DNA of 64,000 nt from Octopus sinensis (lineage: Eukaryota). Position numbers and translations under genes: made by a program. The notes below the pieces were generated by a model, which was given only the letters and a program-made list of their open reading frames with translations, did no database searches and had not been told where the DNA came from. Location of the stretch: NCBI RefSeq assembly GCF_006345805.1, contig NC_043006.1, forward strand, positions 56,048,001 to 56,112,000, written 5' to 3'. Of the stretch, positions 28,190 to 61,344 are shown piece by piece. Position 1 is the stretch's first letter. Every line of letters begins with the position of its first letter.

Positions 28190-28323
28190 ATCGCTACGCG
28201 CGTTTCCACATATCACATGTCTCTAAAGACCACCGCCCGTGTTCCTGGGATGCTTACAGTATAGTCCGTAGTATCCGTGGACATCGGGTAGATCATCTCC
28301 ATAGATTCATTTCTTCAGGCGAT
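28190..28323 (-). ncRNA. Type-I hammerhead ribozyme motif with a ~105-nt stem-II insert
   Basis: Minus strand: ATCGC-CTGAAGA-...-GAAAC-GCGC-GTA-GCGAT. Stem I is ATCGC/GCGAT and stem III is palindromic; stem-II closure is unclear. Confidence 0.6.
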
Positions 28324-30189
28324 ATAACATAAGGGATTTTTACTAGAAGGACCTTTATCCCTTTCGACTAGTGCGGAGGTTGATTGAGTTATGTGGGTAT
28401 TTCTGTTTGTATTTGGTAGCGAGGAAGAGAAAGTGATGGAAAAAGAGAAGGGAATGGTAGTTATATGGGGAAGGAGGTGTGTGTGCTGATGTTGGACTTA
28501 TTTTGCTATTCAGTCTGCAGATATCAAGAATGGGTAGTACGTTCCTTTGTTCGATCTCATTTAAGGCACGACTATTTTCAATAAATTGTGAAGTAAATAG
28601 GTCAGCTGGTACATACACTACTACCATTAGCTGTAGGAGATCATTGTCTGAATCGATAAATGATACTTTCTTAGGGTGATCTTTTAGATGTTTCTGGTGG
28701 TAGAGTGGTATAATGAATATCATCCTAAATATTGGTTTATTTGTTTGTTTGTTTGTGTTCCTTCTTATGCTAAGGGAGGTTGATTGTATTCCGTTTCAAA
28801 ATATGTTTTTCAGATTCCAAAAACATTATATGATCACCTGGGAGTGTCTACTTATCATGTTTTCTCTTGATGTAATGATTTCTATCGGTATTTGCAAAGG
28901 GAGGTCATCCTTCCCTCGTCAACCTAAGTGATACGCACTGACTGCAGTTTCTGGGTATTGACTCGATAGGGCACAGAAAGTGTGCCAATAGACAGCTGGA
29001 GAAGATGTTCTCCTGGGGCTACAAGCTACAGTAACATCCACCCTTAGTGATTAGCCATATTTAGATGGCAAATATATTTCACACATACACACACACACAC
29101 ACGCACACACACACACACACACACACACACACACACACACACACACACACACACACACACACACACACACACACACACACATATATATATATATATATAT
29201 ATATATATATATATATATATATATATATATATACGTATATACTGAAAGTAAGGATCCAACCAAACCATGCAACGACGGAGTATTCCCTACTAATGAGCTT
29301 GTAATTTTTAAAGCGAAGCTAGTCTAGTATATTGATCTAGCTTCACTGTGGGACGGTTATCTCCCCTGTCAGTATATGAAAATGTGCTTTCTTGCAGTTG
29401 TAACTGGTTTTAACTCTTATTTCTTGCAATATAGGTTCTACTCGATACCCCCAGTCGCAATTACAGACAACTGAACTTTTCCTTTTTCCATTTTGGTTCT
29501 GTATTGCGTTTTATATTGCTGCCTTTGTTAGTACACACACACACACACACACACACACACACACACACAAACACACGGACAAACACACACATACACACAC
29601 AAACACGTAATATACACACACACACACACACGCGCACATATATATGTATATAATACATAAATATATATACAGATGCATACGTTTATATCCACATACATGC
29701 ACACATATATGAGAGTGGGTGCGCGTGTGTATGTATGTGTGCGTGTGTGCGTGCGTGTGCGTATATGTGTGTGTGTGTGTGAATGTGCGCTTGCACAGTA
29801 ATAGTTGTCTGTTGATTCTCTTCATTAATGCTCAGAATTTCAAATACGAGTTATACACGTCAGAATTCATTTGGTGATTGGTTAAAGCGGGGGAAGGGTA
29901 TCGGCAACTTTCCGGCAGGGCTAATATCATCGATTAAGCCAAATTAGATCACAAAATAATTAGAAGACTTAAAATATTATTAGTATCTAAAGTTCTGTAG
30001 CCTAAATATAAAGTAGTCAGGCCAAATTTACACTCATTGGAGCAGTTGCCTTTGCACGGTTGTTCAACTAATTGGCTATAGATTCGAATTGGTTGGACGT
30101 AAATTTTAATCGGTATTTGATCATGAATGATTTACAGAAGATTCGAGTGTAAATGGAAGCCGTCCGGTCGTAAGCTTAGTTTAGCTTGA

Positions 30190-30500
30190 GGTTAGCACTT
30201 TTGCTTTATTGTTCCTTCTCGAGCCACGCCTGCCTCATAAGGGCCCGTTTCCCGGTTTCCTTGGCGTATAGGTTCCCCACTTAGACCGTCCGTCGCAGGT
30301 GAGCTGCAAGATGCAGGAGGAAAGAGTGAGAGAAATTGTGGCGAAAGAGTCAGCAGAAGTTCGCCATTAACTTCTGCCGGAGCCGCATGGAGCTTAGGTG
30401 TTTCGGTCATAAACACACACATCTCCGGTCTGAGATTCGAACCCCCGATCACTCGACCTCGAGTCCGCTGCTCTAACCACTAGGCCATGTGCCTCCACAT
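30190..30500 (-). mobile_element. tRNA-derived SINE about 140 nt upstream of the gene B acceptor
   Basis: Minus strand has A box TGGCCTAGTGG and B box GGTTCGAATC, followed by a non-tRNA body. Confidence 0.7.
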
Positions 30501-30667
30501 GGCCTTCCTTTATTATATTCACCAAACTTGCTTTACTGTGATACAGTGTGACATTTAAAATAAAGTAAAGATTTAGCTACTTTGCATCAAGACTCAGTCA
30601 GATATAATTCTTTTCTTTTACTTTTTCTTTCTTTCAGAATTTCATCAACAATTGCGATATTCATATC

Positions 30668-57862: not shown

Positions 57863-58379
57863 ATAGTGGTAGTTATGAGAGTTAGTGCGGTTAAGGGTCA
57901 ATTGGTGTATTAGGTTTATATGTATGGAGCTGGGGGTTATGCTGAGTTAATTAATTAGGGTGGATTTAGCTGGTTGTGGATTGGAGGTAAAATATTTCTC
58001 TAAGGGAGCTATATTTAGGGAAATGTTTTTCCAGTAGGGGAAGAAGAGTTGGAGTACTCGAATCTGGACGTTAGTGACGAAGGTGGGGGTGAAACCAGAT
58101 AACGTTCCGGGTTATAGTCTGTTTAATTCGATTAGTGGAGTTAACTGGGTGGAGATAGGGCTTTGAATGTCTATGCTGGTGTCTGTTTTGATGGCTTGTG
58201 ATGCATATGGGATTTGGGGTTTTCTAGTAGGGAGGTTGTTTGTTAGTTCGTCTGCTACATCGATATTTGGACGGGTATTGGAGGGCTGGGATGAAGGATG
58301 TAGTCTATAATATGGAGGTGAGGAACTGTTTTCTGTTCCTAGTTTAATGGAGAAAGGAATATCCCACATGAGGATGTAT

Positions 58380-59220
58380 TCAATTGATTGTGTATATACG
58401 GCACGTTGTAGGGCACAATTGTAATAATCAGCATATTGATCGAATGAATCATTATTAGCAGGTAGTGAGGATATCCAGTAGGAAACGCTTTCTGCAATGG
58501 GCTTTACGACGAAGAGTGTGGTTGGAGGAGAAGTTCACGTAGTAGAGGTTTTCTTCAGGTTTGTGGTATGGGTATATGGTTTTGCTTTGCAAGTCCAGGG
58601 TTACTGAGATACTGAGGCTGACGTTTTAAAAAGAGTCTCTTAATCTTTGTTTAGTTTGTTCGATTATCCGGTTACTAGAATTTTGGATAGTAAATAGAGC
58701 GTCATCTCTGTATAGACCATCGGAGAAGTTAGGGAATTGTTCATGGAGATCGTTAACTAGGTAGAGTCCCACAAGGTCAGTAACTTAGGAGGAGTCACTG
58801 GCTCCCATGGAGGTATTTAAAAGATTAGGTGTAACATTGCGGGACCAGGATTTCCCATCAAGAGATATATTTCGGTGGTCTGCTAATATATCAATATCGT
58901 CGCGAGATAGGTTGGAATGTTTTTCGGAGAAAATTAGGGCCTTATTAAGAAGAATAGGAGAAATGCTATCAATAATATTGATCAATGTCGGCTTGCATGA
59001 ATTTAAAGGTGTGCTTAGGGTATAGAGAGGTGAGCCACTGGATAGCTTCAGTGGTTTTGGTCCAAAGTTTTTGCGAAGATTTGGTGTAAAGTTGGGGTAT
59101 TATTTAATAGAGTATGATTTTGCTAATCTTAACTATATTGGAGCTGGAAGGGAAGATAAGGCAAATGCGGCAGGGAGGGGGTTACTGCGAAGTTTTCTTT
59201 GTGATCTTTCAATCTGATAT
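58380..59220 (-). mobile_element. Penelope-like reverse transcriptase remnant; decayed body probably continues to about 56130
   Basis: SISPILLNKALIFS...TSMGASDSS...DLVGLYL...GLYRDDAL on the minus strand. Confidence 0.75.
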
Positions 59221-61249
59221 GGGTTACAACTCGATCCCTGGATCTTACATATCTATCTATCTATCTATCTATCTATCTATCTATCTATCTATCTATCTAT
59301 CTATCTATCTATCTATCTATCTATCTATCTATCCATCTATCTATCTATCTATACATATATACTTGTAATATTTTGGGACTAATGGGTATATGTCGATTAG
59401 TGTGTTAATTTTGGTTATAGAAATATAATAGTAATGAAGATTGTAACAACACTTCATTCCCTAACATGACGGACGAAATAACAATATGACTGTCCGAGCT
59501 CAAGATCTTTAGCGCGACATCACTTTATGTATGGATGTACCTGATGTGACTCAGACTGCAAAATGGATGCAACATAGCATGATGCACGGAGTCCCACGCA
59601 TAAGGGGCAATAGTAAGATGGGGCGATTGAGGTGGACAGTAAAGGGAAGTCAGTAGTGATTCTTCTGGCTACTTAAATATTATCTCAGCTATATAGATAT
59701 ATAAACGTAGTGTGTATGTGTGTATGTATATATATATATATATATATATATATATATATATATATATATATATATATATATATATATATATATATATATA
59801 TATACGTATGTATATATGGAAAAAATCTTCAGAACGTTTGTACAAGCACATATATTTGTTCGTATTTATAAGTATTTACCAGTATACATTTAGTGATATA
59901 AGTGTATGGATATAATAAACCCTACAGTTTTTTAAATGAAAGTTTTTAATCAAAATCTATACCCAATTTCCTTATGTGATTACCAAATATTCATGTTTTT
60001 CGTTAATTATATTTTAATAAGTCTCATATACATATATATATTTTCGTATATTGTAATATTTTACCAAGTAGTCATATATATATTATATTTTATATTATAT
60101 TACCAGGTATTTATTTTAGAAGCTTATTAATGTTGACATTAATATAGTGTAGTATATGAGTTGTTGGTAAAAACCAAATAGCGTTTCGTATATTTTAATT
60201 TTTAAATGTTTTCCACAGTTACCCCCCTTTAGCTATATTTCACAAAAATGAAATTTTTTTCATTTTGATAATTTTTTTTTAAATTAGAAAATTATCTTAG
60301 AAGTATTCATAACATAATATCAAAATCCTTTCCGTACATATTTATTTTTATTATCCCCCTTCGTATTTAAGGCCCCTTACACAATTTCTTCTTAAACTTT
60401 GCTTGAATATTTTCTTAAATTTGTTTTGTATTTTATTGATAAGTTTTAACGGACTCGATAGAACGATTTTGTTTTAAATATTACCTGACCAGTTACGTTG
60501 TAAGATTGATATTGGTCTTACCACACTTATCATAAAGGTATTATGATGACATTCTTTTGTTAGTATATAATAACATCACAATTAATACCCAAATTATTTC
60601 TTTATTGATATAATTACGTAATGATTCTCCAACTCTGTTTTCCTTACTCTTTTACTCTTTTACTTGTTTCAGTCATTTGACTGTGGCCATGCTGGAGCAC
60701 CGCCTTTAGTCGAGCAAATCGACCACGGGACTTATTGTATAAGCCCAGTACTTATTCTATCGGTCTCTTTTTGCCGAACCGCTAAGTGACGGGGAGGGTA
60801 CGTACAACACACCAGCATCGGTTGTCAAGCAATGCTAGGGGGACAAACACAGACACAAAAACATATACACACACACATATACGACAGGCTTCTTTCAGTT
60901 TCCGCTACCCAAATCCACTCACAAGGCATTGGTCGGCCCGGGGCTATAGAACAAGACACTTGCCCAAGATGCCACGCAGTGGGACTGAACCCGGAACTAT
61001 GTGGTTGGTTAGCAAGCTACTTACCACACAGCCACTCCTGCGCCTAAATTTTATTACTATTCTATTCCATAGTTTTCAGTTTCTGTTATAAGGATCATCC
61101 CATTAACCCCACCCTATAACTTATATCTTTACTATCTCCTCCATCAAATAGAAATAAGATGTGATCTCACAACTTCTGGATATAACCTTGGACTTTACTT
61201 TTTACTATTTTACTTTTTTTCCTTTTTTTTAATTCTTACCATTATGGAG

Positions 61250-61344
61250 TCTCTGATGAAGTTTTGGGGTTCAAATTTTGTATAATTTTTGTATGATGTG
61301 TCAACTTTGGCATGCCGGACCCCAATGTAGAAACAGCCGTAAGA
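61250..61344 (+). ncRNA. Hammerhead motif, partly decayed
   Basis: TCT-CTGATGA-A-..TTGGGGTTC...GGACCCCAA..-A-GAAAC-AGCC-GTA-AGA. Confidence 0.55.

Follow-up and report, generated by a model that had tools for sequence, protein, structure and literature searches.

We analysed a 64-kb window of the Octopus sinensis genome (contig NC_043006.1, positions 56048001-56112000; genome size 2.72 Gb), an AT-rich stretch with many microsatellites and mobile-element fragments, for its hammerhead ribozyme motifs and the repeats that carry them. In the reading that we hold to be probable, these hammerheads belong to the terminal repeats of Penelope-like elements (PLEs) and to retrozymes and are predicted to cut as dimers, and one of the retrozymes is the site of a long interspersed nuclear element (LINE) and likely its promoter donor.

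Hammerhead motifs and the repeat families that carry them

The window was searched with the core descriptor CUGANGA-N(8-150)-GAAAC-N(0-8)-GUH, and dinucleotide shuffles served as controls (300 for each of three block sizes). The search returned 16 core matches against 1.3-1.5 in the shuffles, and five cores with a perfect palindrome of at least 8 nt against 0.01-0.03 expected. At each block size, none of the 300 shuffles reached either number, which places the motif frequency far above that of shuffled sequence. A first-pass annotation of this DNA, made from the letters alone, had named seven hammerheads. Those at 28190(-), 41925(-), 42668(+), 46110(-) and 47463(+) were exact in both descriptor match and palindrome. 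At 61250(+) the core is likewise exact, but stem III reads ACAGCCGU, which by one change is no palindrome; most relatives read ACAGCUGU. At 50260(-) a hammerhead is present, but its core reads UUGACGA (U3 for C3), its stem II is an ordinary 14 nt and its palindrome has 6 nt. The type-I core (CUGANGA, GAAA and UH in type-I order) is therefore exact at six of the seven main sites. The window copies at 42668 and 61250 are partly decayed relative to their own families.

As a measure of the genomic background, 100 random 10-kb stretches (1 Mb) were drawn from 13 large contigs. They contained 22 strict motifs per Mb (16 after merging one 7-copy tandem) against one in 20 shuffles, and 63 palindrome-only matches against 4-16 in shuffles. 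Strict motifs in the window number 4, against an expectation of 1.0-1.4 (Poisson P 0.02-0.055; the window was picked for these motifs). Its description as a dense set was thus overstated: the rate is 2-4 times that of the genome and near the normal state, and the window is a somewhat rich sample of a genome-wide condition. Extrapolation gives a genome total of roughly 40,000-60,000 strict motifs.

That the motifs are chance matches in AT-rich repeat DNA is refuted for the seven main sites and has a negligible probability overall. Shuffle counts, random-sample counts, the palindrome excess, stem pairing and covariation all oppose it; what speaks for it is that single variant-core matches (UUGANAA, or non-C at 15.2) arise in shuffles at about 3 per Mb and that four listed decayed sites have no relatives among the collected loci.

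Tandem and repeat finders run on the window returned mainly microsatellites. Family searches placed each of the seven main sites in a separate repeat family, in agreement with the proposal of many distinct Penelope or retrozyme families. First-look candidates were listed per family and 40 of each were scored; the candidates numbered 1114 for 28190, 1223 for 41925, 1349 for 42668, 3273 for 46110, 2032 for 47463, 1802 for 50260 and 182 for 61250. The features outside the 50260 family are as follows.

28187..28326, minus strand: type-I hammerhead, core 28318-28195, 105-nt stem II domain, palindrome ACGCGCGU
28160-28884, minus strand: old Penelope-like element ending in (TTA)n, with the preceding hammerhead near its 3' end
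41750..42223, minus strand: part of a 535-nt non-coding tandem retrozyme monomer; core 42001-41931, 52-nt stem II, ACAAUUGU
42226..42560, plus strand: inverted, 5'-truncated copy of the 535-nt retrozyme; 3' half of the hammerhead at 42266
42612..42986, plus strand: repeat of about 370 nt; hammerhead 42673-42788, 97-nt stem II, ACAGCUGU
46052..47293, minus strand: 5'-truncated Hydra-like Penelope element; broken C-terminal open reading frame (ORF), GIY-YIG region at about 47269-46544
46191-46115, minus strand: hammerhead in the 3' repeat of that element, 58-nt stem II, ACAUAUGU
47294..47743, plus strand: 583-nt non-coding tandem retrozyme, 450 nt of one monomer, ending in (TA)n
47469-47547, plus strand: hammerhead of the 583-nt retrozyme, 60-nt stem II, ACGUACGU
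61044..61555, plus strand: repeat of about 510 nt, palindrome mutated in the window copy; hammerhead 61253-61341, 70-nt branched stem II

The link to Penelope is closest in the 46110 family, where 14 of 24 loci showed Penelope ORF matches. Locus L354 holds an open 778-aa Penelope ORF with DKT and a GIY-YIG-type region, a related hammerhead adjoining it and repeats at both ends; it is 74% identical at the DNA level to the window fragment. The family thus combines a reverse transcriptase (RT) and GIY-YIG ORF with hammerhead-bearing terminal repeats and partial tandem or inverted copies, as Penelope-like elements do. Pfam gave no match to the Penelope ORFs, the 778-aa frame included. Homologs of this frame were 42 unnamed or hypothetical proteins at 28-39% identity, one of them with weak GIY-YIG and RVT_1 matches, and the sole named homolog of the window protein is from a cephalopod (35%). 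Read by eye, the family has the Hydra-clade traits DKT, RWL instead of RWK, no CCHH and (TA)n flanks. We use the label Hydra-like because the CxCX5C linker of that clade is absent in L353 and L354; a CxC-like linker is present in L115 of the 28190 family. In that family, Penelope-profile matches were found in 3 of 24 loci and the C-terminus resembles the 46110-family ORF, and the 28190 hammerhead probably has the same position as that at 46110, inside the 3' repeat of such an element. Profile matches were found in 1 of 19 loci for 42668 and 0 of 29 for 47463.

Three families (41925, 535 nt; 47463, 583 nt; 50260, 357 nt) consist of non-coding tandem monomers with one type-I hammerhead per unit, the form of non-LTR (long terminal repeat) retrozymes. 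Their copies are arranged in full or partial tandems or are truncated and inverted, in many cases next to (TA)n, a layout that matches the Penelope insertion signature in PMC8557442. In the 41925 family, the 40 best matches were at 100% identity (rounded), and tandems of 535/536 nt were seen.

Further Penelope and retrozyme sequences were observed. Fragments of Hydra-like Penelope ORFs were found by tblastn at 57023-59221(-) and 37365-37619(+), and 6380-6520(+) is a decayed copy of a long-stem hammerhead from a Hydra-like family with intact ORFs (89% to L354). A further retrozyme family is represented by locus L231, where units of about 400 nt stand in tandem; its hammerhead has a 44-nt stem II and the palindrome ACUGCAGU.

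Palindromic stem III, long stem II and predicted cleavage

Among matches selected on the stems alone, 22 of 27 had a perfect palindrome. The two-copy duplex of the palindromes has a free energy of -6.4 to -13.3 kcal/mol, while the hairpin costs +2.4 to +2.9 kcal/mol for 8-mers; this balance is in keeping with the proposal of PMC4209133 that tandem transcripts are cleaved as dimers. A palindrome of 6-8 nt would be too short for a stable hairpin, and the palindromes of two copies in one transcript would pair as stem III instead. Each predicted cut would free a unit-length RNA, which the Penelope reverse transcriptase would copy into (TA)n sites. Contigs from runs guessed to be RNA cover the 47463 unit.

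The stem II domain measures 52-105 nt in the six long-stem window copies and is constant in length inside each family. In the random sample, it was 42-100 nt in 16 of 22 strict motifs and 16-21 nt in the other 6. Each of these six inserts folds so as to lengthen helix II (z -1.75 to -3.8). Covariation across family copies was analysed in a Hydra-like set of 11 diverged sequences, with 500 shuffles and slid alignments as controls. Seven of the 12 extended stem II pairs vary on both sides, and 88% of cells are paired, a value reached by none of the 500 shuffles; the slid controls gave 38-53%. As a second control, 22 sites across unrelated families were picked by core and 8-nt palindrome only. 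In these, stem I pairs at 72 of 88 positions against 42 when permuted, and stem II at 70 of 88 against 45 (0/10,000 permutations each). The 8-nt palindrome occurs in all 13 long-stem families and in 3 of the 9 families with a short stem (Fisher P 0.001, with six single-copy variant-core matches left out of the count). This association could stem from descent, since published Hydra hammerheads likewise have a 4-bp stem III. Structurally, the long stem II would lengthen the helix by 10-14 bp, in many cases with one or two hairpins branching off, and leave the core as it is; it would most likely stabilise helix II or bind the Penelope protein.

The suspicion that descriptor searches miss such inserts was borne out. 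The published descriptor for minimal hammerhead ribozymes (min-HHRs) of PLEs limits loop 2 to 3-10 nt and ends in gaaannuh, and it failed on the 52-105-nt stem II and 8-nt palindromes found here. Rfam misses the long inserts as well and scored only the short-stem motif at 50260: the best 150 matches in the window were microsatellite-driven microRNA matches and one HH9 match, and seven family loci gave no match at the gathering level. Descriptors in current use would miss most motifs in genomes like this one, as they do for the long-stem 16 of 22 in the random sample.

Several observations weigh against self-cleavage or against parts of the fold. Among 54 copies of the hammerhead of the 357-nt repeat, 50 have U3 facing G8 (a sample biased towards window-like copies, with some loci counted twice), and core position 4 is C in both Penelope copies with an intact ORF. 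Insertion by an anole Penelope element in vitro did not require hammerhead cutting, which was protein-assisted (PMC11167929), and 8 of 9 frog retrozyme dimers failed to cleave (10.64898/2026.07.22.740005). Covariation is weak in the side hairpin of the insert (1 of 6 pairs), and of the 13 long inserts in the family list, 2 have folds no better than those of shuffled sequence. Kinship among sequences can also exceed a pair shuffle without any structure. No parent ORF was tied to the 42668, 61250, 41925 and 47463 families, with 0-1 profile match each. The substitutions and the published failures to cleave are what one would expect if the motifs were kept chiefly as folded recognition signals for the Penelope protein, with self-cleavage weak, protein-dependent or lost in the spreading families. 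We regard this as rather unlikely: the core is intact in dozens of unrelated families, the U3:A8 swap preserves the catalytic pair, the palindromes vary yet stay palindromic, and the two youngest long-stem families have perfect cores.

A long stem II might also hide a 5' splice site, so that splicing removes the cleavage site from the mRNA. GTAAG- or GTGAG-like words do occur in some inserts (41925, 47463, L267, L202), and an intron end overlaps helix I in the D. virilis Penelope (PMC4209133). The inserts have no donor word in common, however, and no such word is present in those of 46110 or 28190. Across 46056-47738 no GT..AG joint was found in contigs of three guessed-RNA runs and one unlabelled run, which drop rare forms; unspliced contigs span the 47463 motif. 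Contig ends did not accumulate at any point of this interval, although RNA ends are not visible in contigs. We give this explanation very little credence.

Of the decayed or half copies named in the first-pass annotation, those at 28940(-), 43230(+) and 44630(+) fall in real families, whereas 45702 is no hammerhead and was rejected, being the centre of a 390-nt foldback without any CUGANGA. The sites at 6820, 29290, 33411 and 38333 are candidates, with no relatives in about 1.97 Mb of collected loci.

6765..6900, minus strand: possible decayed hammerhead, candidate, ACACGUGU; a Penelope GIY-YIG fragment, 8633-8044(-), lies about 1.2 kb upstream
28888..29088, minus strand: 357-nt retrozyme, decayed copy from a sister subfamily (compare locus L058), palindrome ACUGCAGU, 5' core lost
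43229..43268, plus strand: short hammerhead with U3:A8 core swap (UUGAAAA), 4-bp stem II, ACCGGU; relatives L130, L162, L249, L264
44622..44665, plus strand: decayed short hammerhead of a family with AU-type stem III; relatives L186, L213, L267

Two further long-stem hammerhead-like cores, missing from the earlier list, were seen at 49956-49880(-) (58 nt) and 43605-43680(+) (57 nt); their palindromes are decayed and they had no relatives among the collected loci. A repeat family at 16969-16822 and 23508-23361(-) has two hammerhead-like cores 79 nt apart, kept in five relatives; neither core obeys the GUH/stem I rule, and the stem III half of one is in part complementary to that of the other. 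At 39560-39615(+), a repeat family with 14 matches in the collected loci has GAAAC...GTA shortly ahead of CUGAAGA, a type-II-like order with unconvincing stems.

The 357-nt retrozyme and the LINE at its predicted start

The 50260 family turned out to be of a different kind from the other six, with a canonical short stem II, a promoter motif of small nuclear RNA (snRNA) type and a LINE in its predicted start site.

50087..50325, minus strand: 3' part of the 357-nt retrozyme; target-site copy 50325-50308
50296-50266, minus strand: its canonical-type hammerhead, U3, 14-nt stem II, ACUAGU, predicted cut after +56
50326..55851, minus strand: intact 5.5-kb L1/Tx1-like LINE, flanked by an 18-nt duplication
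54081-50677, minus strand: LINE ORF2 with apurinic/apyrimidinic (AP) endonuclease, RT and zf-RVT
55657-54788, minus strand: LINE ORF1 with zinc knuckle
55852..56130, minus strand: 5' part of the retrozyme; ATCAGT 55924-55919 (-59), predicted start 55865, target-site copy 55869-55852

The hammerhead scored 31.2 bits against HH9, under the gathering score of 52 bits, and its loops 1 and 2 show the HH9 features. The first six bases of the repeat are those of U2. ATCAGT lies at -57 to -61 in all 7 U1 loci, in all 19 U2 loci and in 28 of the 39 retrozyme starts, where chance would give 0.0003 per position; it is at -110 in one further start and missing in ten, and many 357-nt copies are 5'-truncated. 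The word is preserved in three diverged subfamilies of the repeat; a search of the 535- and 583-nt monomers for ATCAG returned none. The LINE target thus looks like the putative transcription start of an snRNA-type promoter.

The LINE has a zinc knuckle ORF1 and an ORF2 with AP endonuclease, RT and C-terminal zinc motif and no RNase H. These domains characterise the Tx1 clade and are common to the L1 group, and the homologs carried no names; on its sequence, the element is labelled L1/Tx1-like only. Its last 351 nt, without flank, were used as query; of 217 candidates 40 were scored, and the 3' flanks of the 30 best-scoring were classified. Twenty-three flanks are retrozyme at one and the same base; one of them was assigned by eye, and two further subfamilies, whose stems and palindromes differ, are represented among them. 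Five are a further LINE copy joined via one target copy, one begins with base 1 of a complete U2 gene (183.6 bits) that belongs to a U2 cluster, and one is unrelated DNA, yet the 5' side of that copy is retrozyme. Measured by the rule for Tx1 target preference (more than 20% of flanks in one repeat; PMC4494074), the preference is clear, with 23 of 30 directly and 28 of 30 once the tandems are counted. The retrozyme site is also where copies of a second LINE family (75-82% identical) end, and more distant relatives end in (TATC)n in five of nine 3' regions shown (two of the nine stop before the tail).

Because LINE copies differ by 1.2% and host flanks by 3.7%, and host ends vary among loci, the insertions look independent. 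In line with this, 22 of 23 near-identical LINE pairs sit in hosts more than 1.3% apart. Alternatively, the LINE could have entered the retrozyme once or a few times, with the composite spread by the Penelope machinery and no target specificity involved. LINE and host distances are indeed weakly correlated (Spearman 0.29), and the LINE is full-length at all 13 loci examined at length (95-99.8% identical). This origin is very improbable given that different host subfamilies have their own duplication on both sides (L119, L120), that head-to-tail LINE tandems share one target copy at the joint, that one copy lies at a U2 start, that a second LINE family uses the site, and that the hosts have differing ends and are three times more diverged than the LINEs.

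The copy at the U2 gene start (L117) was informative at its 5' junction, which reads U2 promoter and first 14 nt, then the first 14 nt of the retrozyme, then the LINE. In the simplest reading, the donor LINE RNA would have begun at +1 of the retrozyme. It is improbable that the endonuclease reads only a short DNA word around TTTCATCG, with the promoter incidental and unused, even though a similar word is found at all 30 3' junctions, the unrelated flank included, and the (TATC)n at the ends of sister LINE families is a related word. The target 8-mer occurs 38 times per Mb, so a short word alone cannot explain the choice of site: roughly 100,000 8-mer sites stand against 1,802 repeat candidates, yet 29 of 30 ends lie at the repeat, a LINE therein, or U2, and the L117 junction points to a donor RNA that started at the +1 of the repeat.

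Two points count against this view of the LINE. The sample is the best 30 of 217 candidates, and a genome-wide pattern of LINE tail plus ATCG gave 114 matches against 133 for the reversed control, which is no support at the level of counts. That list includes 8 of the 10 remaining scored LINE matches outside the 30-flank sample. As a separate observation, other tails recur in it before ATCG (two words, each more than 10 times) and may mark more LINE families with the same target. In one case (L145:1900-3190), a related broken LINE (65-75% protein identity) starts about 100-200 nt downstream of a U2 gene.

If the LINE does choose its site as proposed, its endonuclease would nick the DNA just upstream of the +1 set by the snRNA-type promoter and make a second nick at +14, and each new copy would sit beneath a ready-made promoter. 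The LINE RNA would start with the first 14 nt of the host and could anneal at the next target, favouring full-length insertion. Read-through beyond the LINE tail would arrive at the predicted hammerhead cut after 56 nt of the repeat downstream; use of this cut by the LINE is the least supported step. A more far-reaching version, which we put forward tentatively as a joint proposal and consider less likely than not to hold in full, is that a LINE lineage has specialised on snRNA-type starts with the retrozyme as a safe and self-multiplying landing pad, and that, separately, the long-stem-II hammerheads are an overlooked class. The landing pad would supply a promoter and a 14-nt homologous leader, and its ribozyme would trim the 3' end of LINE read-through at 56 nt. 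If true, Penelope element, retrozyme and LINE would form a three-layer chain of parasites, and this genome alone would hold some tens of thousands of long-stem-II hammerheads.

The LINE is young, intact and two-ORF with a sharp target, and should be useful for the study of site choice by AP-endonuclease LINEs. The 357-nt family offers a defined predicted promoter, start site and cut site. It bears on retrozyme transcription and on the role of Penelope hammerheads.

Other features and relation to known systems

Features of the window beyond these repeats include near-perfect, MITE-like (miniature inverted-repeat transposable element) foldback elements at 45497-45885 (~390 nt, including 45702) and 7765-7909. 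A 6.55-kb tandem duplication (13192-20343 and 19764-26891, 98.6% identity) lies beside (TTA)n runs and holds fragments of a non-LTR element with a restriction-like endonuclease motif, read by eye. Two exons of the carboxylesterase/cholinesterase family, 75% identical, lie at 923-2124 and 30608-32158(+); the latter is a 516-aa open frame (PF00135) and the former is split over two frames.

In the literature searched, we found no publication that joins Tx1 LINEs with retrozymes or hammerheads, although Repbase or Dfam may already list the LINE and its target, and none that treats stem II domains of 40-130 nt as a class, although Lunse et al. may cover longer stem II variants. As judged from the sequence, what appears new is a LINE that targets the predicted snRNA-type start of a retrozyme, and the long-stem hammerheads as an overlooked class.

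Hammerheads in Penelope-like terminal repeats have been described before, as has the U3:A8 variant (Cervera and de la Pena 2014, PMC4209133). The motifs reported there share with ours the core, the palindromic stem III, the location in terminal repeats, the thousands of solo copies and the inverted pairs. Their stem II domain is about 25 nt or less in all examples listed, whereas here 42-130 nt and perfect 8-nt palindromes dominate. With the Hydra clade of Penelope (Craig et al. 2021, PMC8557442), whose listing includes one cephalopod family, the elements share DKT, an RW-like motif, a C-terminal GIY-YIG, (TA)n and a 4-bp stem III. All 26 Hydra-clade rows listed in that paper have a short stem II, in contrast to the long one here, and the intact ORF here is without the CxCX5C linker. 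The only precedents for a long loop 2 in its tables are two spike-moss PLE-X1 motifs of 29-35 nt.

Metazoan non-LTR retrozymes are likewise non-coding tandem monomers with one type-I hammerhead each and have been proposed to be moved by Penelope elements (PMC7229834; 10.64898/2026.07.22.740005). Beyond what the accessible parts of these two sources describe, the octopus families add 535/583-nt monomers with a long stem II, a U1/U2-type promoter motif and a dedicated LINE parasite. Newt satellite 2 (Coats et al. 1994, as cited in PMC2220036) is reported to be a hammerhead repeat driven by an snRNA-type promoter. The 357-nt family links an invertebrate retrozyme to such a promoter; the newt repeat is amphibian, and the promoter here is placed by motif position alone. 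In newt satellite 2, the distance from the transcription start down to the cut is reportedly a few tens of nucleotides. No LINE is known to target it.

Among LINEs of the Tx1 clade, Tx1 inserts in Tx1D, Keno in U2 genes and Kibi and Koshi in microsatellites, and Tx1-Mar is a further example (PMC4494074, PMC4640811). The octopus LINE resembles them in its AP endonuclease, its fixed site in a multicopy repeat, its tandem insertions and its sister families in microsatellites. Keno reportedly sits some tens of nucleotides downstream in U2. Whereas Keno inserts inside U2, the octopus element goes to a ribozyme repeat at its predicted start and, in one case, to a U2 gene at its start.

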